This document shows, one piece after another, positions 1 through 63,123 of a DNA stretch of 64,000 nucleotides (position 1 is the first letter of the stretch; each line of letters begins with the position of its first letter). The notes beneath the pieces were generated by a model. It was not told where the DNA came from. It saw only the letters and a list, made by a program, of their open reading frames with translations, and did not search any database. The translations under genes were made by a program, and so were the position numbers. This stretch comes from Myxococcota bacterium (GTDB lineage Bacteria > Myxococcota_A > UBA9160 > JAFDDA01): NCBI GenBank assembly GCA_965228475.1, contig OZ245817.1, positions 672,001 to 736,000 on the forward strand, in the 5' to 3' direction.

Positions 1-2
1 CG

Positions 3-1325
3 GACGCGCGCGGCTTCCAGGTCGAGGGCGAGAAGTACACGCCCAACCAGCAGGAGAACATCGCGCGCAACAAGACCCTGGTGAACGGGGCGCGCTACTA
101 CGTCGACCACGCCCACCCCGAGTACTCCTGCCCGGAGGTGACGAACCCGCGCGACCTCGTCGTGCACGAGAAGGCCGGCGACATCGTCGTCGAGCGCAGC
201 CGCAAGGAAGCGAACGCCCTGCTGCCCGAGGGCACGCAGATGCTGCTCCACAAGAACAACAGCGACGGCAAGGGCAACAGCTACGGCTCGCACGAGAACT
301 ACCTGATGGACCGTCGCACGTCCTTCAAGCAGATCGTCGAGCACCTGATGCCGTTCTTCGTGACGCGCCAGGTCTACACGGGAGCCGGCAAGGTCGGCAG
401 CGAGAACCGCGCCCACCCCTGCGACTACCAGCTCGCCCAGCGCTCGGACTTCTTCGAGACCGAGGTGGCCCTCGACACGATGGTCAAGCGACCCATCATC
501 AACACGCGCGACGAGCCCCACGCGGACCGCGAGAAGTACCGCCGCCTGCACGTGATCGTGGGCGACGCGAACATGCTCGAACCGACGATCTTCCTGCGCC
601 AGGGCGCGACGGCGCTCGTGCTCTCGATGATCGAGGACGGCAAGGTGAAGCCCTCCTTCGCGCTGCGGGATCCGGTGCGCGCGATCAAGGACGTCTCCCA
701 CGACGTGGACCTCGGCCACGAGGTCCAGCTCGAGAACGGCAAGAAGTTCACGGCCATCCAGCTCCAGCGCGAATACTGCGACCTCGCGACGAGCTACGTC
801 GCCCAGGCGAGCGACCTGCACCCGAGCTACAAGGACGTCGTCGAGATGTGGCAGCGCGTGCTCGAGACCCTCGAGCGCGACCCGATGGAGCTGGCCGACG
901 AGATCGATTGGGTGGCGAAGAAGGCCCTCATCGAGAACTTCATGGAGCGCAAGGGCCTCGACTGGAGCTCGCCGCGCGTGCGGCTCCTCGACCTGCAGTT
1001 CCACGACCTGCGCCGGGAGAAGGGCCTCTACTACCTCCTCGAGCGTCAGGGCCGCGTCAAGCGCATCACCACGGACGAGGAGATCGAGGCCGCCGTCACC
1101 GAGCCGCCCGAGGACACGCGCGCCTACTTCCGGGGCCAGTGCCTGAAGCGCTACTCGGGCGAGGTGTTCGGCGTGAACTGGGACTCGCTTTCCTTCGGGA
1201 TCGGCGACGAGCCCATCAAGCGCATCCTGATGGCGGAACCGCTGAAGGGAACCAAGGCTCACGTCGATGAGCTGTTGAACCAGTCGAAGGACGCGGCCTC
1301 GCTGGTGAAGGCACTGCGCGCCTAG
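3..1325 (+). CDS. dop: Pup deamidase/depupylase Dop (5'-truncated by window edge)
   Basis: Frame open from position 3 (DARGF...). Motifs NGARYYVDHAHPEYS, GNSYGSHENYL, IINTRDEPHAD..YRRLHVIVGDANM, PPEDTRAYFRG, NWDS. Lies directly upstream of pup. Confidence 0.93.
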   Translation, partial: DARGFQVEGEKYTPNQQENIARNKTLVNGARYYVDHAHPEYSCPEVTNPRDLVVHEKAGDIVVERSRKEANALLPEGTQMLLHKNNSDGKGNSYGSHENYLMDRRTSFKQIVEHLMPFFVTRQVYTGAGKVGSENRAHPCDYQLAQRSDFFETEVALDTMVKRPIINTRDEPHADREKYRRLHVIVGDANMLEPTIFLRQGATALVLSMIEDGKVKPSFALRDPVRAIKDVSHDVDLGHEVQLENGKKFTAIQLQREYCDLATSYVAQASDLHPSYKDVVEMWQRVLETLERDPMELADEIDWVAKKALIENFMERKGLDWSSPRVRLLDLQFHDLRREKGLYYLLERQGRVKRITTDEEIEAAVTEPPEDTRAYFRGQCLKRYSGEVFGVNWDSLSFGIGDEPIKRILMAEPLKGTKAHVDELLNQSKDAASLVKALRA

Positions 1326-1382
1326 CGGCAGGACGACGCGAGCGAACGGATTTCGAGCCCCGGCTCGGGAAGAGAGAGAACG

Positions 1383-1583
1383 ATGGCACAAGAGCAAAAG
1401 CACAAGGGTGGCGGTGGTTCCGGCGACGATTCGTCGGGCAAGGACTCCGGCGGTCAGAAACTCGCCAAGAAGGGCGAGGAGCTGAAGGAAGAGATGGACG
1501 CGCTCGTCGACGAGATCGACGAGGTCCTGGAAGAAAACGCCGAGGAGTTCGTGAAGAACTACGTCCAGCGCGGCGGCGAATAG
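1383..1583 (+). CDS. pup: Prokaryotic ubiquitin-like protein Pup, C-terminal GGE
   Basis: 66 aa, MAQEQ..GGGG N-terminus and DEIDEVLEENAEEFVKNYVQRGGE C-terminus; closely resembles mycobacterial Pup. Confidence 0.97.
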   Translation: MAQEQKHKGGGGSGDDSSGKDSGGQKLAKKGEELKEEMDALVDEIDEVLEENAEEFVKNYVQRGGE

Positions 1584-1654
1584 ACAGCCAAGACGGGGTT
1601 GGCCGGTCTTGGCCGGCGCCATTCAGGTCTTGTAGAACGGATTCGGGGGGGATC

Positions 1655-2452
1655 GTGTTCTTTCGCAACGGCTACTCTGGTTTCCGGAGCGGCTACCAAG
1701 GTTCCAGTTTCTTCGATCTGGTCAACAGTGAAGCGCCGGCCCTCGCGCCGGACTTCGCGACGCTCGCGCGCGGGCTCCAGCTCGAGGACGTGCCCCACGG
1801 CACCACCGTCTGCTCCTTCAAGTTCGAAGGCGGCGTCGTCATGGCCGGCGACCGGCTCGCCACGGCCGGCATGCGCGTCGCTTCCCGCGAGGTGCAGAAG
1901 GTCTTCCCGACCGACACGCATTCGATGATCGCCATCGCCGGCGCCGCGGGCCCGGCCATCGAAATGGCGCGCCTGCTCTCGATCGAGCTCGAGCACTACG
2001 AGAAGATCGAAGGCGAGCGCCTGGAGCTCGACGGCAAGGCCAACAAGCTCTCCCAGATGATCCGCCAGAACCTGCCGGCCGCGATGCAGGGCCTCGCGGT
2101 CGTGCCGCTGTTCGCGGGCTACGACCTGCGGCGCCGCGTCGGGCGCCTGTGGAACTTCGACATCACGGGCGGCCGCTACGAAGAGGGTGAGTTCGAGTCC
2201 TCGGGCTCGGGCGGCCTCTACGCCGCGGAGTACATCAAGAAGGAGTGGCGCCAGGGCATGGACGCGCCCGCGGCCCTCGACCTCGCCGTTGCCGCGATCA
2301 GCGCGGCCGCCGACGAGGACCGGGCCACCGGCGGCGTCGATCTCGGCCGCGGGATCTTCCCGATCGTGAACGTCTGCACCGAAGCCGGCATCGTGCGCGC
2401 GACCGACGAAGAGGTCCGCGCCAGCTACGACCGCGTTCGAGGAGCCAACTAG
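1655..2452 (+). CDS. prcB: 20S proteasome beta subunit with propeptide
   Basis: Propeptide then PHG|TT autocleavage site; Thr1, Asp17 and Lys33 conserved (TTVCSFKFEGGVVMAGDR...QK); SGSGG motif. Confidence 0.95.
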   Translation: MFFRNGYSGFRSGYQGSSFFDLVNSEAPALAPDFATLARGLQLEDVPHGTTVCSFKFEGGVVMAGDRLATAGMRVASREVQKVFPTDTHSMIAIAGAAGPAIEMARLLSIELEHYEKIEGERLELDGKANKLSQMIRQNLPAAMQGLAVVPLFAGYDLRRRVGRLWNFDITGGRYEEGEFESSGSGGLYAAEYIKKEWRQGMDAPAALDLAVAAISAAADEDRATGGVDLGRGIFPIVNVCTEAGIVRATDEEVRASYDRVRGAN

Positions 2453-2454
2453 CG

Positions 2455-3153
2455 ATGTCGATGCCCTTCTACGTTTCGCCCGAACAGCTCATGCAGGACA
2501 AGGCCGAGTACGCCCGCAAGGGCATCTCGCGCGGCAAGTCCATCGTGACGCTCGAGTACGAAGGCGGGATCCTTCTGGTGGCCGAGAACCCCTCGACGAG
2601 CCTCTCGAAGATCGGCGAGATCTACGACCGCGTGGCCTTCGCCGGCGTCGGCAAGTTCAGCGAGTTCGATCAGCTCCGGAAGGTCGGCGTGCGCTACGCG
2701 GACACCCGCGGCTACGCCTACAGCCGGGACGACGTGCGCGGCAAGGCCCTGGCGAACGCCTACTCCCAGGTGATCGGCGAGACCTTCACGCGCGAGATGA
2801 AGCCCCTCGAGGTGGAGATCGTGGTCGCCGAGTGCGGAGACCCGCGCTTCGCCGGCCACGAGGAGGACGCCCTCTACCGCGTGCGCTTCGACGGCAGCAT
2901 CACGGACGAGCAGAACTTCTGCGTGATCGGCGGCAACGCCGAGCCGCTCGAGAGCCACCTGCAGTCCCGGTACGAGAAGGGCGCCTCGCTCGCCGACGCC
3001 CTGCGGCTCGGCCGCGACGCCCTCGGCCGCGCCGAGAACGGCGATCCGGACCTCGGCGCACCGAACCTCGAGGTCTGCGTGCTCGAGCGCCAGCGCGAGG
3101 GCCGCAAGTTCCGGCGCCTCGAGAGCAGCGAGATCTCCACGCTCCTCGGCTAG
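2455..3153 (+). CDS. prcA: 20S proteasome alpha subunit
   Basis: MSMPFYVSPEQLMQDKAEYARKGISRGKS, KIGEIYDRVAFAGVG, YAYSRDDV, KPLEVE; ATG 2 nt after the prcB stop. Confidence 0.95.
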   Translation: MSMPFYVSPEQLMQDKAEYARKGISRGKSIVTLEYEGGILLVAENPSTSLSKIGEIYDRVAFAGVGKFSEFDQLRKVGVRYADTRGYAYSRDDVRGKALANAYSQVIGETFTREMKPLEVEIVVAECGDPRFAGHEEDALYRVRFDGSITDEQNFCVIGGNAEPLESHLQSRYEKGASLADALRLGRDALGRAENGDPDLGAPNLEVCVLERQREGRKFRRLESSEISTLLG

Positions 3154-3257
3154 GGAGGGAAGCCCGGGCCCCCGCGGGGCGCTCGGCAAAAGGTCTGCGC
3201 CCGGGCTGCCGATACCGGAAGGGCTATGGTGCCCTTCCAGGGCCGGGTGGGAGTCTC

Positions 3258-4664
3258 GTGCAGAAGCGCATCTTCGGGGTCGAGACGGAATACGGGATCA
3301 TCTTCACGCCGGAAGGGCGGAAGACGCTGCCCGTCGAAAAGGCGATCCGCTTCCTCTTCGAGAAGCTGATCACCACCGAGCATTTCCTCAACGTCTTCCT
3401 CGAGAACGGCGCCCGCTTCTACCAGGACACGGGCTGCCACCCCGAGTACGCGACGCCCGAGTGCGCCTCGCCGCGCCAGCTCATCGTCTACGACAAGGCC
3501 GGCGAGCGGATCCTCGAAGATCTCCAGGACTACGCCGAGGAGAAGATCCGCGAAGAGCGCATCGCGGGCCGCCTCAGCATCTTCAAGAACAACACCGACT
3601 TCGTCGGGAACAGCTACGGCTGCCACGAGAACTACCTCGTCGATCGCGACGTGGACTTCTACTACCTGGCCGAGCAGCTGATCCCGTTCCTCGTGACGCG
3701 CCAGATCTACAGCGGCGCCGGCAAGGTCTTCCAGACCCAGGACGGCATCCACTACTGCATCAGCCAGCGCGCGCAGCACATCTACCAGAAGATCTCGGGC
3801 ACCACGACGAACGACCGCTCGATCATCAACACGCGCGACGAGCCCCACGCGGACCGCGAGAAGTACCGCCGGCTGCACGTGATCGTGGGCGACTCGAACA
3901 TGAGCGAGTACACGAACTTCCTGAAGGTCGCGGCCTGCACCGTCGTGCTCCAGATGATCGAGGACAACTACATCCAGAACGACTTCACCCTGCGCAACCC
4001 GGTGAAGGCGATCAAGGACATCTCCTACGACACGACGTGCAAGCGCAAGCTCCGCCTCGACAACGGGCGCGAGTACTCGCCGATCGAGATCCAGCGTGAG
4101 TACTGCGAGCTCGCGCAGAAGTACATCGAGCACTACCCGGTCTCCGACGAGCTGAAGGAAGGCGTGCGCATGTGGCAGCACGCCCTCGACGCCCTCGACA
4201 CCGACCCGAACCAGCTCGCCGACAAGATCGACTGGGTGATCAAGCGGCGCCTGATCGAGAGCTACCTCGACAAGCGCGGCACGAGCTGGAACGACCCGCG
4301 GGTCTTCATGCTCGACCTCCAGTACCACGACATCCGGCTGAACCGCGGGCTCTACTACCTGCTCGAGCGCCAGGGTGCCGTCGAGCGCGTGCTCACCGAC
4401 GAAGAGGTGATCAAGGCGAAGACCGAGCCGCCCCCGGACACGCGGGCGAAGATGCGCGGCGAGTTCATCAAGCTGGCCCGGCAGAACGCCATCCAGTACG
4501 ACCTCGACTGGTCGAACATCCGCCTCGGCAACCTCCTGAACGTCCGGGTGATCTGCAACAACCCCTTCGAGACGGACACCGAGAAGGTCGCGGAGCTCGT
4601 GCGGACGATCCAGAAGACGAATCTCCGCAAGACCTCCCTCTCCAAGCTCGTCATTCAGAGTTAG
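3258..4664 (+). CDS. pafA: Pup-protein ligase PafA
   Basis: RIFGVETEYG, FLENGARFYQDTGCHPEYATPEC, GNSYGCHENYL, RLHVIVGDSNMSE, PPDTRAKMRGEFI, DWS. GTG start after a GGGAG SD. Confidence 0.93.
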   Translation: MQKRIFGVETEYGIIFTPEGRKTLPVEKAIRFLFEKLITTEHFLNVFLENGARFYQDTGCHPEYATPECASPRQLIVYDKAGERILEDLQDYAEEKIREERIAGRLSIFKNNTDFVGNSYGCHENYLVDRDVDFYYLAEQLIPFLVTRQIYSGAGKVFQTQDGIHYCISQRAQHIYQKISGTTTNDRSIINTRDEPHADREKYRRLHVIVGDSNMSEYTNFLKVAACTVVLQMIEDNYIQNDFTLRNPVKAIKDISYDTTCKRKLRLDNGREYSPIEIQREYCELAQKYIEHYPVSDELKEGVRMWQHALDALDTDPNQLADKIDWVIKRRLIESYLDKRGTSWNDPRVFMLDLQYHDIRLNRGLYYLLERQGAVERVLTDEEVIKAKTEPPPDTRAKMRGEFIKLARQNAIQYDLDWSNIRLGNLLNVRVICNNPFETDTEKVAELVRTIQKTNLRKTSLSKLVIQS

Positions 4665-4708
4665 CTCGGACCTCTCCGGCAGGGACTCCTCGGCGCTATG
4701 GTCCGCCC

Positions 4709-6994
4709 GTGGTGGCGGAGGAGCGATCGGAGCCAGCCAGGGACCCCACGGTAGGTCGGTGGGCCGTGGCCGCCTTCGTCTTCCTCACGGCCCTGATCGT
4801 CCGCGCCGTGCGGCATCCGCTGGTGTTCACGCCGTCCGGTGTGGACTTCCCGTTTCTGGGAGATCTCTACTACCACGTCCGCCGGATCTGGTTCACGGCA
4901 GCGAACTTCCCCGAGATCCTCTCTCACGATCCCTACGTGAGCTTCCCGGACGGGGCTCAGATCGTCTGGCCCGGCGCCTTCGATGGGTTGATCGGGGCGT
5001 TGGCCTGGCTTCTGGTCGGGGGCGAGAGTCAGGCACGAGTCGAGGAAGTTGCGGTGTGGGTGCCACCCGTCCTGGGAGCCGTCACCGCCGCGGCCGCTTC
5101 GTGGATCGCACAGCCCCGATACGGACGCCCGGCAGCGCTTCTCGCCGGAGGAATCTTCGCCTTTCTCCCGGCGAGCTTCGTCTTCTCGCAGCTTGGCCAG
5201 TTGGATCACCACGTCGGGGTGGCCTTGCTTGCCGCGGGCCTGCTCGGAGCCGGACTCGCCGTGATGGAAAAGCCCGGCCGGTCTACGGCGGTGGCCCTGG
5301 GTGTGATGATGGCCGGGATCATCGGGCTGTGGCCCGGTGCGTTGCTCCACGTCCTGGTCGTGGAGGTCGGGCTGGCGGTCTGGACATTCGGTGCCGCCGA
5401 CGGGCGCTCGGCTGCTTCGAGGGCGGGTGTCCTCTCGGCGGCTCACGCCCTGGCGGCGCTGCTCCTCGCCCCCTTCTGCATTGGCCGTGTTTGGGAGGCT
5501 TTCGGCGCGTGGACGCCGTGGGCGCTCTCGAACTTCCAGCCCGTTTGGTTGGGAGCGGTCGCGGCGGCGCTCGCTGTCGCCGGGGCGGCTTTCCGTCGCA
5601 CCTCGGCCGGTCGAAGCCCGGTGGCTCGCATGACCTTCGCTGCGGCGCTGGCGGTCGTTGCCTCGTCCGTCTCGCTCGTCCTGATCGCTCCCCTGCAGGA
5701 TTCCCTCTCCGAGGCTTCGGGTTGGTTCGGACAGACGGAGGAGTTCCAGAGCCACGTCGCGGAGCTTCGACCTCTGCTCTACCCGAAGGGCCGGTTCGAA
5801 CTCCGCTCGGTGGTCACGGACTTCGGCCTGGCGGGCCTCTTCTTTCCGTTGGCCTGGCTCGCGCTGTTCGTAACCGGTTGGCGACACCGCCGATCTTCCG
5901 ACGGGCTCCTCCTCTGGTTCGCTGCAAGTTTCATGATTCTCACCTTGAACCAGCGTCGCTTCGAGAACACGCTCGCCGTACCCTACGCCCTGGTGTGGGG
6001 AGCGGTGCTCGGCGACCTTGCGCCCCGCGCGTGGCGCTCCCTGGCGGGCCATCGGCTCGCGAGAGGGCTCGTGGCCGCAGGGATGGTGCTGGGGCTCCTG
6101 CTCTCGGCCGGGTCGGTGGTGAACTACTACGTGCCGTTCCTCGGCCAGGCGCAGATGGCATCGGCGAGCTTCCCGCCACCGAGGAGCCCCGTCCGAACGC
6201 AGCAGCGCCTCTTCGAGCGTGCCGGGCGCTTTCTGGCCGCGAACTCTCCACCGACGCGGGGCTATCTCGACCCGAGCGTTCGGCCGGAGTACGGAGTGCT
6301 CTGCAACTGGGGCGTTGGCCACCTGCTTCGCTATCGCGCCGAGCGGCCAATGGTTCAAGACAACTTCGGCGTCTACGGAGGGCGCCGCACATTCGACCTC
6401 GCGTGGGCGTACTTCGCTGCGGAGGAAGAGAGCGAGGCCGTCGCCATCGCCCGTTCTCTCCGGGCTCGCTACGTCGTCGCCGATCCTCTCGGCGCCGGGT
6501 CCCGGAAGCCCTACGCGCCCCGGAGCCTGGCTCGCCGGCTGGCCCAGTTCTACGGGAGCGAGCACGACCTTCCCGGAGGTCGCGGGCGTGTCCCGGCCCT
6601 CGCGCACCACCGGCTGTTGTTCCACACGAGCGGGGACGACCGCGCCGAACTCGTCACGCAGCGCCGCGACCTCGCCGTTGCCGTCTTCGAGATCGTGGCC
6701 GGCGCTCGCATCGACGGTCTTGCCCGGCCGGCTTCGAACGTCGAGGTGAGCCTCCCGATCCGAACCGGCGAGGGCCGCCGCCATCGCTACCGGGTCACGA
6801 CCGTGGCCGACGGAAAGGGGCGTTGGTCCGTGACGGTTCCGTATCCGACGGACGTCTCATGGAGTCCGGACCTCGCGGGCGGAGCGAGCTACCGCGCACG
6901 TTCCGCGGAGCGTGAGGCTGCGTTCGAGGTGCCCGAAGCCGCGGTTCGCGGCGGTGACACGGTTCCCGGTCCGAACCTGGGCGCCGGCGAATGA
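4709..6994 (+). CDS. STT3/AglB-like oligosaccharyltransferase-family membrane protein
   Basis: Many TM segments; GDLYYHVRRI, DPYVSFPDGAQIVWP, DHH, HVAE, RRF, degenerate NWGVGH (WWDxGH position), DNFG; C-terminal soluble domain. Confidence 0.7.
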   Translation: MVAEERSEPARDPTVGRWAVAAFVFLTALIVRAVRHPLVFTPSGVDFPFLGDLYYHVRRIWFTAANFPEILSHDPYVSFPDGAQIVWPGAFDGLIGALAWLLVGGESQARVEEVAVWVPPVLGAVTAAAASWIAQPRYGRPAALLAGGIFAFLPASFVFSQLGQLDHHVGVALLAAGLLGAGLAVMEKPGRSTAVALGVMMAGIIGLWPGALLHVLVVEVGLAVWTFGAADGRSAASRAGVLSAAHALAALLLAPFCIGRVWEAFGAWTPWALSNFQPVWLGAVAAALAVAGAAFRRTSAGRSPVARMTFAAALAVVASSVSLVLIAPLQDSLSEASGWFGQTEEFQSHVAELRPLLYPKGRFELRSVVTDFGLAGLFFPLAWLALFVTGWRHRRSSDGLLLWFAASFMILTLNQRRFENTLAVPYALVWGAVLGDLAPRAWRSLAGHRLARGLVAAGMVLGLLLSAGSVVNYYVPFLGQAQMASASFPPPRSPVRTQQRLFERAGRFLAANSPPTRGYLDPSVRPEYGVLCNWGVGHLLRYRAERPMVQDNFGVYGGRRTFDLAWAYFAAEEESEAVAIARSLRARYVVADPLGAGSRKPYAPRSLARRLAQFYGSEHDLPGGRGRVPALAHHRLLFHTSGDDRAELVTQRRDLAVAVFEIVAGARIDGLARPASNVEVSLPIRTGEGRRHRYRVTTVADGKGRWSVTVPYPTDVSWSPDLAGGASYRARSAEREAAFEVPEAAVRGGDTVPGPNLGAGE

Positions 6995-7063
6995 CGGCTC
7001 GCTCTCCACTCATTCGGAGCTAGACTCTCTCTCCATCGTCGATCCCCTTTGCACGGAGTTCCC

Positions 7064-7492
7064 ATGAGCGAGAGCACCCCCGAGACGAACGAATCCACCC
7101 GCAAGGCCCATCTCCAGTCCGTCCCCGCCAAGGAGTCGAGCGCGCCGGCGCCGGCCCAGAGCGGCCCCGTGCGGCAGTCCGGCGGCCACTTCACCGGCCT
7201 GCTGGCCCTGCTGCTGGCCGTGGCGGTGTTCGCCCTGCTGGCCCAGTTCTCCGCGAACCAGGGTCTCGAGGCCGAGAACGCCGAGCTGAAGACCCAGCTC
7301 GCCTCGACCCAGGCCGAGCTTGCGGCCAGCCAGGAGAACATGAGCACCGCGCGCGACGCGCTCGGCGGCCTGAAGGACGTGCTGGCCCGCGTCGAGGCGC
7401 TCCTGCTGCCGCCCGTCGCCGCCGAGGGCGGAGCCGAAGCGGCCCCCGAGGCTGTGAGCGCGGACACGCCCGAGGCGCTCCCGGCCGAGTAG
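7064..7492 (+). CDS. Hypothetical bitopic membrane protein with coiled coil
   Basis: One TM helix followed by a heptad-rich segment; GGAG SD upstream; host-like codon usage. Confidence 0.65.
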   Translation: MSESTPETNESTRKAHLQSVPAKESSAPAPAQSGPVRQSGGHFTGLLALLLAVAVFALLAQFSANQGLEAENAELKTQLASTQAELAASQENMSTARDALGGLKDVLARVEALLLPPVAAEGGAEAAPEAVSADTPEALPAE

Positions 7493-7685
7493 CGCCGCCA
7501 AGAGCGAGGAATCGCGGGCCGGTCCGACGGGCCGGCCCGCTGACCCCGCGTCCGCTCCCACCCACACGCCCTTCACCCCAGGCCGATCCACTTTCGGCCA
7601 TGCGTGTGCTTTTTCCGCTCAGGGGCCTCCCGGGTAACGCCGATGAGACTCGGTAGAACACCTCCCCCCCAACGGAGGTCCTCCC

Positions 7686-8723
7686 GTGGTCTTTGGTCCC
7701 ATCGCCGCATTCCTGTCCGACGATCTCGCAATCGATCTCGGAACCGCCAACACGCTCGTCTACTCCCGGGGCAAGGGCATGATCTGCTCGGAGCCGTCGG
7801 TGGTGGCGGTGGCGCACGACGGACGCAGCCGCGTCGAACGCGTGCTGGCCGTCGGCCACGAAGCGAAGGAGATGGTCGGCCGCACCCCGGGCGGCGTCCG
7901 CGCGATTCGCCCGATCAAGGACGGCGTGATCGCCGACTTCGAGATCGCCGAGGCGATGCTCCGCTACTTCATCCAGCGCGCGCACAACCGCAGCAAGCTG
8001 GTCCGCCCGCGCATCGTCATCTGCGTGCCGCCCTGCATCACCAGCGTCGAGAAGCGCGCGGTGCGGGAATCGGCGCTCTCGGCCGGTGCGCGCGAAGTCT
8101 TCCTGATCGAGGAGCCCATGGCCGCGGCCATCGGTGCGGGCCTCGACGTCACCGCGCCGACGGGCAACATGGTCGTCGACATCGGCGGTGGCACGACCGA
8201 CGTGGCCGTGATCTCGCTCTCGGGCATCGTCACCTCGCGCAGCGTCCGCTGCGGCGGCGACAAGATGGACGAGGCGATCATCAACTACGTCAAGCGCAAG
8301 TACAACATGCTGATCGGCGAGCGCACCGCCGAGCGCGTGAAGATGACCGTCGGCACGGCTTCGACCCACACGAAGACGAGCACGATGGAGATCAAGGGCC
8401 GCGACCTCGTGGCCGGAATTCCGAAGACGGTGATCACGAGCAGCGACGAGATCCGTGAAGCGCTGCTCGAGCCGATCAACGCGATCGTCGAGACGGTCCA
8501 CCTGACGCTCGAGCGCACGCCGCCCGAGCTCGCGGCGGACATCGTCGACCGGGGCATCATGCTCGTCGGCGGCGGTTCGATGCTGATGGACCTGGATCAC
8601 CTGCTCCGCGAGGAGACGAAGCTGCCGATCCTGCGCAGCGAGGATCCGTTCACGGCGGTGGCGACGGGGGCCAGCACGGCGCTCGAGAACATGTCGCTGC
8701 TGCGGGACGTCTGCTTGGACTGA
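7686..8723 (+). CDS. mreB: Rod shape-determining protein MreB
   Basis: DLAIDLGTANT, RPIKDGVIADF, IEEPMAAAIG, DIGGGTTD, TPPELAADI; GGAGG SD. Confidence 0.96.
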   Translation: MVFGPIAAFLSDDLAIDLGTANTLVYSRGKGMICSEPSVVAVAHDGRSRVERVLAVGHEAKEMVGRTPGGVRAIRPIKDGVIADFEIAEAMLRYFIQRAHNRSKLVRPRIVICVPPCITSVEKRAVRESALSAGAREVFLIEEPMAAAIGAGLDVTAPTGNMVVDIGGGTTDVAVISLSGIVTSRSVRCGGDKMDEAIINYVKRKYNMLIGERTAERVKMTVGTASTHTKTSTMEIKGRDLVAGIPKTVITSSDEIREALLEPINAIVETVHLTLERTPPELAADIVDRGIMLVGGGSMLMDLDHLLREETKLPILRSEDPFTAVATGASTALENMSLLRDVCLD

Positions 8724-26654: not shown

Positions 26655-27449
26655 CTAGTTCGCGGCGGGCACGAACTCCCGAGCCGCCTCGGCGAACTCG
26701 GTGCCGTCGTAGTTGTTCAGGATCACCTCGAAGATGCGCGTGGCCTCGCTGTCGAGGTTCATCTTCGAGTAGCAGGTGCCGAGCTTGTAGAGCGCCTGCC
26801 CGTCGAGCCCGAGGCCCGGGAAGTCGTTCAGCACCTTGCGGAAGCGGTCGGCCGCGGACTGGAACTCTTCGCGATCCATGTAGAAGTCGCCGACGCCCAT
26901 CTCGTGCTCGGCGAGCCGCATGCGCATCTCGCGCCAGAGAACCTCGGCCTCCTGGGCCTCCGGCGAGTACGGGTAACGCGCGAGCAGCTGCTCGAGGTGC
27001 TCGAGGGCGTTGTGCGTGTTCGTCTGGTCGCGGTTCGAGGCGAGAGCCTGGTGCTTGCGGCAGAGCGCCGAGCGCAGCACCGAGTAGGGGACTCGCTCGT
27101 GGGAGGGGTGGAGCTCCGCGAAGTCGCGGTAGTAGGAGAGCGCCTCTTCCCACTTGCCCTGGTCGTAGTAGGTGTCGGCGATCTTCAGCTCGGCGAGCAC
27201 CGCGTAGTCGCTGTAGGGGTAGTTGTCGACGATGGTCTGGAAGATCTCGATGGCCTGCTCGTGGTCGGCCTTCGGGATGACGCCGAGCATCTTGCCGTCT
27301 TCGAGGGCTTCGATGCCCTGGCGGTAGAGCACGTCGGCCGTGGGGACTTCCTGGAACTCCGCGGCGTTGTCGGCGCAGCCGGCCGAGAGGGTGAGCGCCA
27401 GCGTGGCTGCGGCAACCCGGAGGGCGGTTCGGAAATGCCCCTTTACCAT
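26655..27449 (-). CDS. bamD: Outer membrane protein assembly factor BamD
   Basis: Lipobox SAG-C, TPRs (YPYSDYAVLAELKIAD, HPSH, RDQT, LAEHEMGVGDFY); GGAG SD. Confidence 0.9.
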   Translation of the reverse strand: MVKGHFRTALRVAAATLALTLSAGCADNAAEFQEVPTADVLYRQGIEALEDGKMLGVIPKADHEQAIEIFQTIVDNYPYSDYAVLAELKIADTYYDQGKWEEALSYYRDFAELHPSHERVPYSVLRSALCRKHQALASNRDQTNTHNALEHLEQLLARYPYSPEAQEAEVLWREMRMRLAEHEMGVGDFYMDREEFQSAADRFRKVLNDFPGLGLDGQALYKLGTCYSKMNLDSEATRIFEVILNNYDGTEFAEAAREFVPAAN

Positions 27450-27708
27450 GGTGTCTCCCTTCAGAAACGGCGCCCGCGGCGAGCGGGAACCCAAGCCCAC
27501 ATGAAAGACCACGAGGGCCTCGAAAGCAAGCGAAAACGCTATCGAAACGCCCGACTTGCCGCCAACTCTGCTACGTTCCGCGCAAGCTCCCGGGCGGCCT
27601 CCGCCCGACGTGCCAGGAACCGCCCGGCGCCGGCTCGAGCGGGCCCGATCCGGGTGGCCCTGACGGGTCCGGGCGCCGGACCAACGAAGAATCGAGGGGG
27701 ACTCTCGC

Positions 27709-27897
27709 ATGATCGACCGCCACATCCGCGACTTGAGGCTCGACCGCCGGCTGCTCGACCGCCGTGGGTGGATCTCCGCCCACGATCTCGAGGAGGCGCT
27801 CTCCTCGCTCCCCGACGTGGCGGACAAGGGCGAGCTGGTGACCGACGAGGAGGCGTCCGCCCGCCCGGCCTCGAGCGACCCCCTCGCCACGCTCTGA
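27709..27897 (+). CDS. Small hypothetical protein
   Basis: 62 aa, GAGGGG SD, host-like codon usage, DRRLL..GWIS...LSSLPDV pattern. Confidence 0.65.
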   Translation: MIDRHIRDLRLDRRLLDRRGWISAHDLEEALSSLPDVADKGELVTDEEASARPASSDPLATL

Positions 27898-27938
27898 GCG
27901 AGCGAGCTTTCTGACCCCAGGCACTGGAGGCACCCGCC

Positions 27939-28568
27939 GTGCTGAAGGCCAAGATCGGCAAGGCCGTCGACCCGGCGGTCCGCAAAGTCTTCCCCTTCCT
28001 GTTCAAGCGGCCCATCAACCCGAACCTGCTGACGGTCGTGGGGACGGTGATCTGCATGGCGTCGGCGGTGGCCTTCGCCTTCGACCCGTTCTGGGGCGCG
28101 GTCATCCTGTGCCTGGGCGGGCTGTTCGACCTCGTCGACGGCGTCGTGGCCCGGCACCACGGGACCGAGTCGAACTACGGCGCCTGGCTCGATTCCACCC
28201 TCGACCGCCTCGTCGACATGACGATCCTGCTCGGGCTGCTGATGTTCTACGCCCGGGCCGGAGAGCCCGGCCTCGTGCTGCTGGTCGGCTGGGTGCTCGT
28301 GGCGAGCGTGATGGTCTCTTACGCCAAGGCCCGCGCCGAGCGCTTCGTCGAGCGCTTCGAGGGCGGCATCATGGAGCGGGCCGAGCGCATGGGCCTCGTG
28401 GCCCTGGGCGCGCTCACGGGCTTCCTCCAGCCGCTCCTGTGGGTCGTGGCCATCGGGTCGACGATCACCGTCATCCAGCGCTTCGGCCTCGCCTACCGCC
28501 TGATGAACGCCCTCGAGAGGGGGCCGGAGGGCTCCGTCGGCGACCAGCCGACCACGAGCGTTTCCTGA
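27939..28568 (+). CDS. CDP-alcohol phosphatidyltransferase (PIP-synthase-like)
   Basis: PNLLT, DLVDGVVAR..G...GAWLDSTLDR signature, SYAKARAE, GIMERAER. Confidence 0.88.
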   Translation: MLKAKIGKAVDPAVRKVFPFLFKRPINPNLLTVVGTVICMASAVAFAFDPFWGAVILCLGGLFDLVDGVVARHHGTESNYGAWLDSTLDRLVDMTILLGLLMFYARAGEPGLVLLVGWVLVASVMVSYAKARAERFVERFEGGIMERAERMGLVALGALTGFLQPLLWVVAIGSTITVIQRFGLAYRLMNALERGPEGSVGDQPTTSVS

Positions 28569-29845: not shown

Positions 29846-29920
<75 letters not shown>

Positions 29921-58436: not shown

Positions 58437-61400
58437 CTACTCGGCGCAGAGCTGCGCCGCCCGGAGCGCGGCGCTCCGCTTGGCGACGTCCTCGAAGTCC
58501 GTGTTCGGCGTCGTGCGCGCGGCCGCGAGCTGGGCCGCGGCGTCGTCCCGGCAGGCCTCGCACGCGGCGTCGCCGCCCGCGCAGGCGACCGCTGCGATCT
58601 CGGCCTCGGCGGTGTCGTCCACGCTCGCGATCAGCCGGTCCCGCAGCGGCGCCATCAGGCCCTCGAGCTCGTAGGGAAGCAGCAGGCTCACGAGGGCGAG
58701 GGCGAGGTCCGTCTGCGGAATGGGCTGCCCGGTGGCGAGCGACCCCGCGATGCGCCCCCGGACCCAGGGCAGGATCTGGCCGCCGAAGGTGTTGGCGAGC
58801 TCCGGGTGGGTCGCCGTCATCGCGTCGAGCTCCGCATCGAGGGAGTCGAGGGTCCAGAGCAGACGCTCCATGGGCGCGCGTGCCGCAGCCAGGGGGGAGA
58901 CGTTCGATTCGTGATTCTGCGTGTTGCGCCGGTCGTGGCCGAAGCCCTGCCAGGGGATGCTCGTGGCGGTGGCCGGAGCCGGCGTGTCCCAGACGAAGAG
59001 GTCGCCCTCCCGGGTCCCGACCACGATCTCGACGAGGCCGTCGCCGTCGACGTCGCCCGCGAGCGGCGAGGTGATGATCCAACCCATCGTGAGCTTCGGC
59101 CAGCCGGCCGGCTGCACGGCGCTTCCGACGGGCACGCCCGCGGCGGCGGCCTCCGAGGCCTCGTCGAGGATCTCGAAGGCGCGCACGAGATAGGTGCCGC
59201 TGCCCTGGACGACCTCGGGCACGCCGTCGCCCGTCACGTCCGCGAGGCCCGGGCTCGCGATGAACTGCATGTCCTCCATCGGCTGCGGGAAGGCGGGGAC
59301 GAGCTCGCCGAGGCTCGCCGGGTCCGCGTTCCAGGCGGCGATCTGGTGGTCGCCGCCGAACTGCTGCCCCGGGACGAGCACGTCGAGGAGCTTGCGGAAG
59401 CCGGCCGTCGGCGCGACCCACTCGGGCAGGCCGTCCTGGTCGATGTCGCCGAAGGCGCCGGAGCCGAGGGTGGGGAAGAAGGGGCCGTCCGCGGAGCCGG
59501 CTTCCGGCGGAACGCCCGGGAAGCCGCCGCCGGCGAAGTCGATGGCGAGGGAGCGCGGCAGGCCGTTGTGATCGCCGAGGATCGGCTCGCCCGCGCCGTT
59601 CACGACGAGCGCCGGCCCGGCGTAGCCGTGCACCACGGCCTCGAGGCTGCCGTTGCCGTCCGTGTCGGCGAGGGCGACGGAGGTCGAGGTGCCGGTCGCC
59701 ACGCTCGGCAGGAGCTGGGAGATCAGCAGCGGGACCGCGACGGGCCAGCCGTCCACCATTTCGCCCGTGGCGTCGACGGCATAGATGCGGCTCGTCACGT
59801 CGAGGTCGAGCTCGTCCTCGAAGCCGAGGGTCGCGAGCAGGCCGAAGAGCGAGGAAGGCGCGCTCCACACCGTCGGGCTGTCGCCGTACTCCTCGGTGGT
59901 GCCGACGATGATCTCGGGCCGTCCGTCCCCGGTGAGGTCGCCCACCGCCGGTGAGCCGATGATCTTGCGCGCGCGCGACTTCGCGTCCGTGCCGGGGAGC
60001 GGCGTGCTGGCGCCGGTGTTCGGGTCGACGCTCACCAGCGACGTGTCGGCGAGCCGCACCGGGAAGCCGGTGACGAGGCTCCCGTCGGCGCGCCAGGCGT
60101 AGAGGTAGCCGTCCATGGCGCCGGCGATGATCTCGAGCGCCGGGTCCACGCCGGCCGGGTCGAGGTCCGCGAGGGTCGGCGCGCTGAACAGGCCGGGGTC
60201 CGCGTCGTTCAAGCGGTTGCGGTTTTCCGGCGCGGAGAAGGCCGGGTTCGTCTGGACGGGGAAGCCCGGGCGCGGGTTGCCCGTCTCGTCCCAGACGTAG
60301 ATGCCGCCCTGGGTTCCGACGGCGACGATCTCGACGCCGCCGTCGCCGTCGAGGTCGTCGGCGGCCACCGCGCCGCCGATGGCTTCGCGAGGCAGGTCGA
60401 CCGCGCCGCTCCCGAATCCGTTCTCGGGGCTCGCTTCGCCCGAGGGCAGGGTGGCCGTGAAGACCGGGAAGCCCGGCAGGTCGTCGCCCGTGGCGCCGTC
60501 GAACACGTGGACGCTGCCCGCGCCCGTCGCGTAGACGATGTCGAGCACGCCGTCGCGGTCGACGTCGGCGAGGGCCGGAGAGCTCTCGCCCGAGGCGCCG
60601 ACGTGGCGCGTCCAGGCCTGGGTCGGGTCGTGGTGGATCGCGACGGCCCGCCGGTCTTCGCCGAGGTTGCCCTCGACGTCGGTGACCTGGAGCCGCAGGG
60701 TGACGGTGTGTTCGTCGGGCTCGCCGACCGGGGTCGCCGGATCGAACGCGCAGGCCTCGGCGATCAGGCCCGGGTCGAAGCTGCCGAGCACGGCGTCTTC
60801 GACGGCCGTCATCGAGAAGCCGCTTCCGATCTCGACGAAGTCCTCGTCGAGCCCCGCGTCCCAGCCGCAGCCGATCTGGAGGCTCCAATCGAAGCCCGTC
60901 GAGCGGACGGCGCGCGCGCTCCCGCGCACCTCGACGCTCGAGCTCGCCTCCGGGTCGACGATCTCGAACCAGCGCAGGCCGCCGGCGAGGTCGGCCTCGG
61001 GCGGGATGCGCACCGTCGTGCCGCCCATGCCGTCCGGCTCGACCAACTCGGCGAGCCGCGCGACGTCCGGGCGCCCGTAGCCCGTGATCGGGTCCCAGCC
61101 CGGCCCGGCCGGGAAGTGGGACGTCCCGAAGTCCATGCCCACCGCGGCGTTGCTCAGCACGAACTGCGCCACGAGGTCGAAGGTCGGCGTGAAGTTCAGG
61201 GCGAAGCCGTCCGGGGTGTGGTCGATGTCCTGGGTCATGAAGCGGAAGATCTGGCGGACCTCCTCCGCCGAGAACGGTGCGGCGTGGTCGCAATCGCCGG
61301 CGTCGTCGCAGTAGGACGAGAGGAGCCCCCGGTCGATCAGGTTCAGGCCGTGGGAGACGATCAGCGCCGCCACGCCGCCCGAGCGGCCCGTCGCTTCGGA

Positions 61401-62669
61401 GGAGCAGCCCGTCGAGGGGATCGCCGCGAAGGCGCGCGGCCCGAAGTTCGTGCAGCCGTTCAGGAGGTCGAAGCCCAGGTTCACGACGCTGCCGTCGCTC
61501 GCGACGTTGTTCGGCACGATCGAGCCGTCGCCGTTCTGGATCGAGTTCACCCAGATCGTGTGGTCGTAGTTAGCCGGGTAGTTGTGGTGCTGGGCCTGCT
61601 CGTCCGCCGCACTGGCGATGAGCGGGACCCCGCGTTCGTAGGCGTAGTCCACGGCCTGCTGGCCGACGGGGCCGACGGTAATCGTCCCGAGCGCCTCGGA
61701 GATCACGTCGACGGGCCAGTCGGTGGCGTAGACCGTGGCGCGCGCGAACTCGGTGCCGATCGCCACGAAGCTGTCGGCGACCTTCAGGGGCAGGTAGAGC
61801 TCGTTCGGGGCCGTTCCCGGGAAGCCGCCGCCGTTGTTCGCCTCGCCCGCCTGATCCTGGGCCTCGCCCGTGCCGTGGCCGTAGTCGACGTCGTCGAAGG
61901 GGTCGTTGTCGTCGTCGTGGAAGTCCCAGCCGGCGATGTCGTCGACGTAGCCGTTGCCATCGTTGCCGCCGCCGTAGCCGTCCTGGCCGTCGCTGCAGGC
62001 GCGGATCAGGTCCTGGCCGTCGAGCAGGGTCGGGCTTCCGCCGAGGGCGGCCGAGACCACCGTCGGGCCCGACAGGCCCTGGCAGGTGATGCCGTCGAAG
62101 TCCTCGACGGAGACGAGGCCGTCGCCGTTGCAGTCGTAGCCGGGGCCCGTGCAGGCGACGGGCGGGGAGGCGTCGGCCGGCATCGGAAGCTCTTCGAGGC
62201 GGAGGGCGACCTTGCGGGCGATGTCCGGCGAGCTCCAGCGGATCCCGCTGTCGAGCACGGCGACCACGACGTCGGGCCGCCCGGTCGTCGTCTGCCAGGC
62301 GCGGAGCAGGTTCAGTCCGGACACGAGGCCGTCGGCCGGGCCGCCTTCGATCTCGCCCTGGTACTTCCAGCCGCTGCCGGAGTCCGGGTTGTCCGGATCG
62401 AAGGCGTAGTCGTTCGGAGTTTCGTCGCTCTCGCCGGGTCCGGGGGCCGGGAGGAACAGGTACTCCGCGTAGTCGTCGGCGCCGATGCAGCTCGCGTCGC
62501 CGATCGGGCACTCCGGGTCGCAGGCGTTGTCCGCCCGCGAGCAGGCGGGGTAGGGGAACTCGGCGTGCGCCGCGGGGGCGCCGAGCAGGGCGAGTCCGAA
62601 CGAGAGAGTCGCCGCCCGCAGCCAGGCGCCTCCGGATCGGACCGTCGAAACACCGCGCAGCATCACCAT
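58437..62669 (-). CDS. Large secreted S8 subtilase-like peptidase with FG-GAP repeats
   Basis: Signal peptide; VAVLDSG (Asp), GWDF, YGHGT (His), GCSSEATG (Ser), GYGR; many SSPALADxDxDG / GFPV / GWP repeats; GGAGG SD. Confidence 0.82.
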   Translation of the reverse strand: MVMLRGVSTVRSGGAWLRAATLSFGLALLGAPAAHAEFPYPACSRADNACDPECPIGDASCIGADDYAEYLFLPAPGPGESDETPNDYAFDPDNPDSGSGWKYQGEIEGGPADGLVSGLNLLRAWQTTTGRPDVVVAVLDSGIRWSSPDIARKVALRLEELPMPADASPPVACTGPGYDCNGDGLVSVEDFDGITCQGLSGPTVVSAALGGSPTLLDGQDLIRACSDGQDGYGGGNDGNGYVDDIAGWDFHDDDNDPFDDVDYGHGTGEAQDQAGEANNGGGFPGTAPNELYLPLKVADSFVAIGTEFARATVYATDWPVDVISEALGTITVGPVGQQAVDYAYERGVPLIASAADEQAQHHNYPANYDHTIWVNSIQNGDGSIVPNNVASDGSVVNLGFDLLNGCTNFGPRAFAAIPSTGCSSEATGRSGGVAALIVSHGLNLIDRGLLSSYCDDAGDCDHAAPFSAEEVRQIFRFMTQDIDHTPDGFALNFTPTFDLVAQFVLSNAAVGMDFGTSHFPAGPGWDPITGYGRPDVARLAELVEPDGMGGTTVRIPPEADLAGGLRWFEIVDPEASSSVEVRGSARAVRSTGFDWSLQIGCGWDAGLDEDFVEIGSGFSMTAVEDAVLGSFDPGLIAEACAFDPATPVGEPDEHTVTLRLQVTDVEGNLGEDRRAVAIHHDPTQAWTRHVGASGESSPALADVDRDGVLDIVYATGAGSVHVFDGATGDDLPGFPVFTATLPSGEASPENGFGSGAVDLPREAIGGAVAADDLDGDGGVEIVAVGTQGGIYVWDETGNPRPGFPVQTNPAFSAPENRNRLNDADPGLFSAPTLADLDPAGVDPALEIIAGAMDGYLYAWRADGSLVTGFPVRLADTSLVSVDPNTGASTPLPGTDAKSRARKIIGSPAVGDLTGDGRPEIIVGTTEEYGDSPTVWSAPSSLFGLLATLGFEDELDLDVTSRIYAVDATGEMVDGWPVAVPLLISQLLPSVATGTSTSVALADTDGNGSLEAVVHGYAGPALVVNGAGEPILGDHNGLPRSLAIDFAGGGFPGVPPEAGSADGPFFPTLGSGAFGDIDQDGLPEWVAPTAGFRKLLDVLVPGQQFGGDHQIAAWNADPASLGELVPAFPQPMEDMQFIASPGLADVTGDGVPEVVQGSGTYLVRAFEILDEASEAAAAGVPVGSAVQPAGWPKLTMGWIITSPLAGDVDGDGLVEIVVGTREGDLFVWDTPAPATATSIPWQGFGHDRRNTQNHESNVSPLAAARAPMERLLWTLDSLDAELDAMTATHPELANTFGGQILPWVRGRIAGSLATGQPIPQTDLALALVSLLLPYELEGLMAPLRDRLIASVDDTAEAEIAAVACAGGDAACEACRDDAAAQLAAARTTPNTDFEDVAKRSAALRAAQLCAE

Positions 62670-62847
62670 GGGAACCTCCACCGAACCACTCTTTTACCAC
62701 GGGGCGTCCGCGGCTGAACAGTGGGTCGGTCGGGATTTCCCTCATCGGAACGCGGGTTTCGAGGCTTGGCGTGCATTTCCGGCGATGCCTGCGTGTGATC
62801 GCCGGTGGCTGTGGTACCCCTGCGCCACCTCGGAGAGGAGGCCGCCT

Positions 62848-63123
62848 TTGAACTGGGAAGACACACCCTTCTGGTTGGCATTCGGACTGCTCGGGAACGC
62901 GGCCTTCGCCTCGCGCTTCCTGGTGCAGTGGGTCGCCTCGGAGCGTGCCGGGGAGAGCGTCGTCCCGAAGGCGTTCTGGTACCTGTCGATCGTCGGCTCG
63001 GTGATCCTGCTGATCTACGCCATCCACCTCGAGAACCTGGTCTTCACCCTGGCGTACCTGCCGAACTGCGTCGTCTACGTGCGCAACCTGATGTTGATCC
63101 GCCGCAAGGAGGTCGCGACCTAG
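62848..63123 (+). CDS. Lipid A biosynthesis N-terminal domain (LAB_N) protein
   Basis: FGLLGNAAFASRFLVQWVASERAGESVVPKAFWYLS, YVRNL; TTG start with GAGGAGG SD. Confidence 0.9.
   Translation: MNWEDTPFWLAFGLLGNAAFASRFLVQWVASERAGESVVPKAFWYLSIVGSVILLIYAIHLENLVFTLAYLPNCVVYVRNLMLIRRKEVAT

Follow-up and report, generated by a model that had tools for sequence, protein, structure and literature searches.

The stretch of DNA analysed here, called the window throughout, comprises 64,000 nucleotides of a Myxococcota genome (G000:C1:672001-736000), the genome being a single closed contig of 5,006,157 bases that is 96% complete. At the left end of the window lies a Pup-proteasome locus, and we conclude with good confidence that this locus encodes a canonical and complete system, made up of arc/mpa, dop, pup, prcB, prcA and pafA, and that it is part of the core chromosome of an uncultured class of diderm Myxococcota. 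An earlier note on this DNA, drawn from the sequence of the window, had placed dop-pup-prcB-prcA-pafA at positions 3-4664, and all five genes were found there on the + strand. It had also expected the ARC/Mpa ATPase just to the left of the window, which is where the gene was located, its product ending in GQYL (Table 1).

Protein families were called with NCBIfam equivalog models at their curated cut-offs, and Pfam served as a second library. The products of all six genes pass the equivalog cut-offs, the Pfam search of the locus agrees with these calls, and the frames of all six genes are open. The 5' end of dop is cut by the window edge; the full-length gene (G000:C1:671838-673325, 495 aa) starts 163 bases ahead of the window, its first 55 codons fall outside, and the complete protein scores 586 bits against TIGR03688 (cut-off 492.3). 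Only 2 bases separate the stop codon of prcB from the start codon of prcA.

Table 1. Genes of the Pup-proteasome locus and other features located in the window and the genome. Positions are those of the window unless given with the prefix G000:C1
Feature	Position	Strand	Match
dop, depupylase/deamidase, 5' end cut by window edge	3-1325	+	TIGR03688, 534.6 bits as fragment
pup, 66 aa, C-terminus GGE	1383-1583	+	TIGR03687, 57.5 bits (cut-off 41.45); PF05639, 68.9 bits
prcB, 20S proteasome beta subunit	1655-2452	+	TIGR03690, 279.5 bits (cut-off 191.9)
prcA, 20S proteasome alpha subunit	2455-3153	+	TIGR03691, 311.7 bits (cut-off 139.05)
pafA, Pup ligase, 468 aa, GTG start	3258-4664	+	TIGR03686, 555.5 bits (cut-off 551.3)
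arc/mpa, AAA ATPase, 627 aa, upstream of dop, outside window	G000:C1:669800-671683		TIGR03689, 746.7 bits (cut-off 504.75)
Sigma-54-type -24/-12 element	G000:C1:669723-669736		
PAC2-family gene	G000:C1:3411951-3412607	-	PF09754, 169.4 bits
AglB/STT3-like oligosaccharyltransferase, 770 aa	4682-6994	+	TIGR04154, 295.6 bits (under cut-off 450); PF18079 and PF22627
BamD	26658-28160		192.6 bits
tRNA-Gln	29846-29920		
Peptidyl-tRNA hydrolase/NhaA frame, 719 aa	31660-33816	+	
1414-aa protein with subtilisin/mycosin-like protease region	58440-62681	-	TIGR03921, E 1e-15, far under cut-off
LAB_N-like ORF	62668-63120		

The catalytic residues of PrcB, PafA and Dop had been described as intact, and alignments to solved homologues agree with this. 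PrcB matches the Rhodococcus beta subunit at 216.8 bits; since the mature chain (1q5q_H) aligns from PrcB residue 50 onwards, Thr1, Asp17 and Lys33 can be placed, all of them intact, behind a propeptide of 49 residues as counted on the translation. PrcA aligns over residues 1-231 with PrcA of Mycobacterium tuberculosis (243 bits), and Dop aligns end to end with Dop of Acidothermus (4b0r; 514.8 bits). The match of PafA to the Corynebacterium glutamicum enzyme (4b0t; 355.7 bits) extends over residues 2-449, and no large insert is seen in this colinear alignment of the 468-residue protein. PafA has an Asp where entry 4bjr has Asn, and we take this Asp to be the catalytic one. Between ARC and Mpa of M. 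tuberculosis (7px9; 655.5 bits) the alignment runs from the coiled-coil region through to the terminal GQYL; the C-terminus of ARC reads SSGQYL, and the Walker motifs GPPGCGKT and FFDEMD are present.

The Pup models TIGR03687 and PF05639 are the sole matches of the tag in NCBIfam and Pfam. In this genome Pup ends in GGE and would be ligation-ready, with no need of deamidation. A GG-E/Q end is found in every one of 72 Pups from the clade of related loci, as GGE in 49 and as GGQ in 23, and the last 14 residues (AEEFVKNYVQRGG followed by E or Q, in which FVKNYVQRGG is preceded by AEE) are the same in 70 of them, the other two carrying one Val-to-Ile change. The division between GGE and GGQ suggests that Dop is needed as a deamidase in some members of the clade and as a depupylase in all.

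A PafA scan of named genomes returned at least 574 related stretches, of which the best 80, with PafA 80-94% identical, were used. Nearly all of these 80 are labelled as metagenome-assembled genomes (MAGs) from Myxococcota, Deltaproteobacteria or Myxococcales, and a few are assigned by their labels to other groups, Spirochaetaceae, Geobacter and Gammaproteobacteria for instance. UBA6930 and SZUA-336 are among the labels of the PafA-related stretches. According to a recent preprint (10.64898/2026.07.10.737566), UBA6930 is a family of the Myxococcota_A class UBA9160 ('Vahlivitia'), a GTDB class, and we infer that the locus-bearing lineage belongs to this class. The 41 nearest genomes span 12 families and 32 genera; every one has a PafA-family match, which is near full length (at least 490 bits) in 36.

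The distribution was followed further in a phylum sample of 400 genomes besides our own, 77 of them from the same class and 323 from outside it. PafA is present in 75 of the 77 class genomes (61/63 of the order and 14/14 of the sister family) and PrcB in 72, whereas PrcB has no match in the 323 genomes from elsewhere in the phylum and PafA has 10 weak ones there (E 6e-21 to 1.6e-42). The view set out in the earlier note, that Pup-proteasome systems are sporadic outside Actinobacteria and Nitrospirota, therefore needs amending for this class, in which the locus recurs in sister genomes as a near-universal core trait. A PAC2-family gene, unlinked to the pup locus, follows a similar pattern, with matches in 57 of the 77 class genomes against none of the 323 others; among the control genomes, the family was matched only in C. 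glutamicum and in archaea. It was not found in the sampled members of some genera that retain the proteasome (0/5 in g35 and 0/2 in g9). A search of the host genome for Bpa (PF10759) gave no match, and gave none in the control genomes either, so that it had no positive control. No PafBC-like gene stands beside pafA, where the flanks only were searched and the downstream neighbours are an AglB-like gene, a 147-aa ORF and mreB. One relative, G016, has two extra, divergent PafA/Dop-like pairs beside its canonical locus (G016:C88:2711-5519 and G016:C42:28937-31960), which score about 200-220 bits on TIGR03686 and may represent a second tagging system.

The organisation of the locus is conserved. 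All six genes are found in 65 of the 80 related loci, and in each of the 65 their order is colinear on one strand. The locus is preceded by ftsK and a lolA-like gene, and mreB follows within 3 kb in 63 of 65 loci containing mreB. Median identities to the window proteins are 88% for PafA (range 80-94), 81% for MreB, 74% for ARC, 73% for Dop, 66% for PrcA and 62% for PrcB. PafA identity exceeds MreB identity in all 62 loci compared, a comparison that is biased upwards for PafA, since the ranking of the 80 loci was itself by PafA identity.

The operon is probably transcribed from a predicted sigma-54 promoter upstream of arc. The element concerned, CGGCACGCGCTTTGCA, is situated 77 bases before the arc ATG and has the canonical GG-N10-GC spacing. 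Of 56 related loci, 53 carry the pattern GG[CT]A[CT]-N5-TTGC on the coding strand ahead of arc, at a distance of 53-177 bases and within the 300 bases searched, compared with a background rate of 0.03 per 330 bases; its strict form, GGCAC-N5-TTGC, occurs in 34 of the 56, compared with 2 occurrences in the 1.76 Mb of remaining locus sequence. This conservation points to an operon that is probably sigma-54 dependent, responding to an enhancer-dependent signal of the host type, and the host genome encodes RpoN (459.1 bits). A promoter and terminator consensus scan of window positions 1-7700 was uninformative, returning one sigma-70-like site inside dop and 4 terminator-like sites against 3.3 expected. 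Contigs from 4 metatranscriptome libraries of 4 studies fall on all five genes of the window at a likeness of at least 85%; being contigs and not reads, they show no starts, strand or level, and being short, mostly from relatives and possibly inclusive of DNA carry-over, they offer weak support for expression.

By homology to the mycobacterial system, PafA, using ATP, would attach Pup by its C-terminal Glu to lysines of substrate proteins. The N-terminal coiled coils of the ARC hexamer would bind Pup and the tagged protein would be unfolded, with ARC docking through its C-terminal GQYL on the 20S alpha ring; PrcB, having processed itself to expose Thr1, would then degrade the substrate. Dop would remove Pup and, in those relatives whose Pup ends in GGQ, would deamidate it beforehand. 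Gene content, intact motifs, distribution, synteny and the conserved promoter-like element are observed directly, while the enzymatic activity, the substrates and the regulation of the locus we infer. The working pathway claimed in the earlier note stands in so far as the genes are conserved and their motifs intact, activity itself being read from that conservation.

The phylogenetic setting was explored with a PafA search of 1.84 billion representative proteins, which gave 2,144 matches at E values up to 1e-30. Leaving fragments aside, the top match from outside the clade has 62% identity, and its cluster includes a protein of Candidatus Moduliflexus flocculans; the next is 48% identical, with cluster members labelled Ilumatobacteraceae or Actinomycetota, and identities to Actinomycetota-labelled representatives are 41-48%. 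The Dop representative that adjoins the clade comes from a cluster with a Candidatus Entotheonellia member. Trees were built with FastTree (139 rows), taken as a first look only in view of its warnings of long-branch joins and of odd composition in 34 rows, and with an IQ-TREE quick search (46 rows, LG+C20 PMSF, SH-aLRT only). Both recover the clade PafAs and the clade Dops as monophyletic (99, starred), and both give the same PafA subclades; in the Dop part, FastTree has the same two four-member subclades, with L090 falling in a polytomy. Rooting on Dop places the clade PafA as sister to the Moduliflexus sequence (SH-aLRT 91 in IQ-TREE, 98 in FastTree), and the clade Dop has the Entotheonellia-containing cluster as its sister (98, starred, FastTree). 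All four Actinomycetota-labelled PafAs, those of Ilumatobacteraceae, Dermatophilus, Corynebacterium and an Actinomycetales MAG, fall in a starred group (96) to which the clade PafA does not belong.

Since the system is restricted to one class of the phylum, a single gain, no later than the common ancestor of that class, is most likely, followed most likely by vertical inheritance under strong purifying selection. The earlier note had proposed an old, ameliorated acquisition, and this part of its argument holds well: the locus is near-universal in the class, its canonical form was not found in the 323 other genomes, and its third-position GC content (GC3) is like that of housekeeping genes. An actinobacterial donor is not supported, given the position of PafA outside the Actinomycetota-labelled group and beside Moduliflexus. 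Organism names were available on only 8 of 30 clusters looked up, and one named member each stands behind the Moduliflexus and Entotheonellia labels.

Had this genome received the locus from an actinobacterium by recent horizontal transfer, that would account for the textbook actinobacterial form of the system and, at first sight, for a locus GC content of 0.63-0.69, slightly under the 0.705 of the genome. The lower total GC is due, however, to low second-position GC; GC3 is 0.91-0.97 in the locus genes, with pup at 0.81, and 0.93-0.96 in mreB, recA, alaS, dnaB and ftsK, in keeping with the earlier description of G/C-ending codons like those of housekeeping genes. The best Actinomycetota-labelled PafA, moreover, is only 48% identical, and the class-wide occurrence of the locus, its fixed flanks and the position of PafA in the trees contradict such a transfer, which we regard as very improbable. 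Poorer still are the prospects of an assembly chimera or contaminating contig, by which the pup genes would be foreign to a diderm genome. We found nothing in its favour: the contig is single and closed, 4 runs from 3 studies each contain 95-99% of the words sampled from window positions 1-4700, and the same junctions with ftsK-lolA-like genes on one side and mreB on the other recur, around the same six-gene order, in dozens of independently assembled MAGs. The possibility of a chimeric join, which had been raised for this locus, can be set aside as extremely unlikely.

The question of what the locus does admits two further explanations. Were it a decaying, non-functional relic, the two class genomes that lack matches and the few with split or partial pafA would find a ready explanation; for this genome, however, the six open frames, the intact catalytic residues, the conservation of PafA above MreB and the conserved promoter-like element upstream contradict decay, and we give it hardly any credence. 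Alternatively, pupylation might here serve chiefly as a reversible, regulatory modification and result in little degradation by the proteasome. Some actinobacteria, Corynebacterium for example, keep Pup, PafA, Dop and ARC without the 20S particle, and regulatory pupylation has been proposed there; the C. glutamicum control genome likewise matches PafA and Dop and not PrcB. In keeping with a regulatory role, conservation is far stronger in PafA and at the Pup C-terminus than in PrcB and PrcA, and Dop is retained though Pup ends in GGE here and in most of the clade, which implies that depupylation matters. On the other hand, PrcB is kept throughout most of the class with Thr1, Asp17 and Lys33 intact, ARC retains the proteasome-docking GQYL end, prcB and prcA lie within the operon in 65/65 loci, and the system co-occurs with a gene of the PAC2 family, which is annotated as one of proteasome assembly chaperones. 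On balance a mainly regulatory role appears unlikely, and we prefer the complete, degradation-competent Pup-proteasome system predicted from the gene content.

Several observations weigh against this preference and temper our confidence. The margin of PafA over its curated cut-off is narrow, 555.5 against 551.3 bits. PafA is partial or split in 5 of the 41 nearest genomes (68-92% complete), where loss, breakage and assembly gaps cannot be told apart, and two class genomes, G224 (92% complete) and G229 (91%), have no match to either PafA or PrcB. The ranking of the loci by PafA identity, the limits of the metatranscriptome contigs, the Bpa search without a match and the pafA flanks without a PafBC-like gene, all described above, count in the same direction. 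Genome-wide, the strict sigma-54 motif is observed 55 times against 61 expected from composition, so that the single site in this genome carries weight solely through its conservation in other loci. Finally, the enzymatic activity proposed for the lineage is that predicted from its homologues.

The host is a diderm, as the earlier note had judged in calling it probably Myxococcota-type: BamA was found in the genome (548.5 bits) and BamD in the window, and close relatives are labelled Myxococcota or Deltaproteobacteria MAGs. Of the features it had listed, BamD, recA-pilT-alaS, ispE, tRNA-Gln and prs were each located, as was a LAB_N-like ORF; the window further encodes mreB, mltG, ruvX, ispG and dnaB. 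Between pafA and mreB lies an AglB/STT3-like oligosaccharyltransferase gene whose GC3 of 0.81 is below that of its neighbours. Such a gene occupies this position in 0 of the 80 related loci; the family is present in 21 of 40 relatives, and the genome has five AglB/STT3-like paralogues, 35-43% identical, one with an internal TAG. Elsewhere in the window, a 719-aa frame joins a peptidyl-tRNA hydrolase (residues 8-178) to an NhaA Na+/H+ antiporter (residues 285-709) and may be a fusion or two genes read through by the ORF caller, and the subtilisin/mycosin-like protease region of the 1414-aa protein spans residues 250-444.

Pup-related genes have been described from deltaproteobacteria before, in a different form. 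Iyer, Burroughs and Aravind (2008; PMC2588565) report Pup sporadically in this group (Plesiocystis) and describe a ligase of the Plesiocystis/Rhodopirellula type, with a four-helix membrane insert, that is unlinked to proteasome genes. The pafA of the window belongs to the same Pup-ligase superfamily but is free of the insert and stands in an operon with prcBA. A ligase-family search of this genome found only pafA and dop, and hence no membrane-type ligase. Ligases of the membrane type probably account for the 10 weak matches to PafA found in the phylum outside the class. In the relative G040, a 642-aa Pup-ligase-family protein (PF03136, 259 bits; G040:C1:3537506-3539431, L101 3007-4932) has a hydrophobic insert of about 140 residues, is encoded beside a rhomboid-domain gene and resembles the Plesiocystis type; segmented ligase matches like that of G040 occur in G007, G015 and G021.

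Two reviews hold bacterial proteasomes to be restricted, or largely so, to Actinobacteria (PMC6466877, PMC8223512). In the literature searched, the only Pup-related system found for 'deltaproteobacteria' was the membrane-inserted ligase without a proteasome (PMC2588565). Searches for pupylation or proteasome with Myxococcota, for UBact with Pup, and with the names Entotheonella, Moduliflexus and Tectomicrobia found nothing relevant, and the accessible text of the Myxococcota preprint cited above (10.64898/2026.07.10.737566) contains 0 occurrences of proteasome or Pup. The locus genes are already annotated automatically in public MAGs. A UBact tag was considered for the window and rejected, the tag matching both Pup models above their cut-offs; no UBact model was searched by name. 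The UBact system is reportedly one of Gram-negative phyla (Lehmann and co-workers, 2017), and De Mot is said to have noted loci of the present kind in Nitrospirae in 2007.

The nearest relatives found outside the clade, the PafA of Candidatus Moduliflexus flocculans and the Dop of Candidatus Entotheonellia, belong to other phyla. It is conceivable, and we put it forward tentatively as something short of an even chance, that the Myxococcota class, Candidatus Moduliflexus and Candidatus Entotheonellia together form a separate, slowly evolving diderm branch, sister to the actinobacterial systems and outside them, and that within the class the system has been rewired to an enhancer-dependent sigma-54 signal and has turned into a nearly indispensable regulator, its PafA being better conserved than MreB. 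If this were true, the system would be older, or more exchanged among diderm phyla, than the view of an 'actinobacterial invention' allows.

The resemblance to the actinobacterial system, as known from M. tuberculosis, Rhodococcus, C. glutamicum and Acidothermus, is close. The six components are the same and stand in the same order, Pup ends in GG-E/Q, ARC ends in GQYL, PrcB has its propeptide and Thr1, and a PAC2-family gene is present in the genome. There are also differences. The PAC2 gene is unlinked here, pafA follows directly after prcA without adjoining pafBC-like genes, PafA is only 41-48% identical to its Actinomycetota-labelled counterparts, the host belongs to the diderm Myxococcota and has BamA and BamD, and a conserved sigma-54-type element lies upstream of arc, whereas Actinobacteria are not generally known to have sigma-54. 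In this outer-membrane-bearing Myxococcota class a complete canonical system is near-universal, most likely vertically inherited, and furnished with a sigma-54 promoter-like element of the host type. With the class there is a further large lineage, the second, phylogenetically independent of Actinobacteria, for studying the purpose of pupylation, the strength of constraint on each part of the machinery and the spread of the Pup-proteasome between phyla. Overall, the finding widens the range of a known system, and is an extension of known biology rather than a new mechanism.

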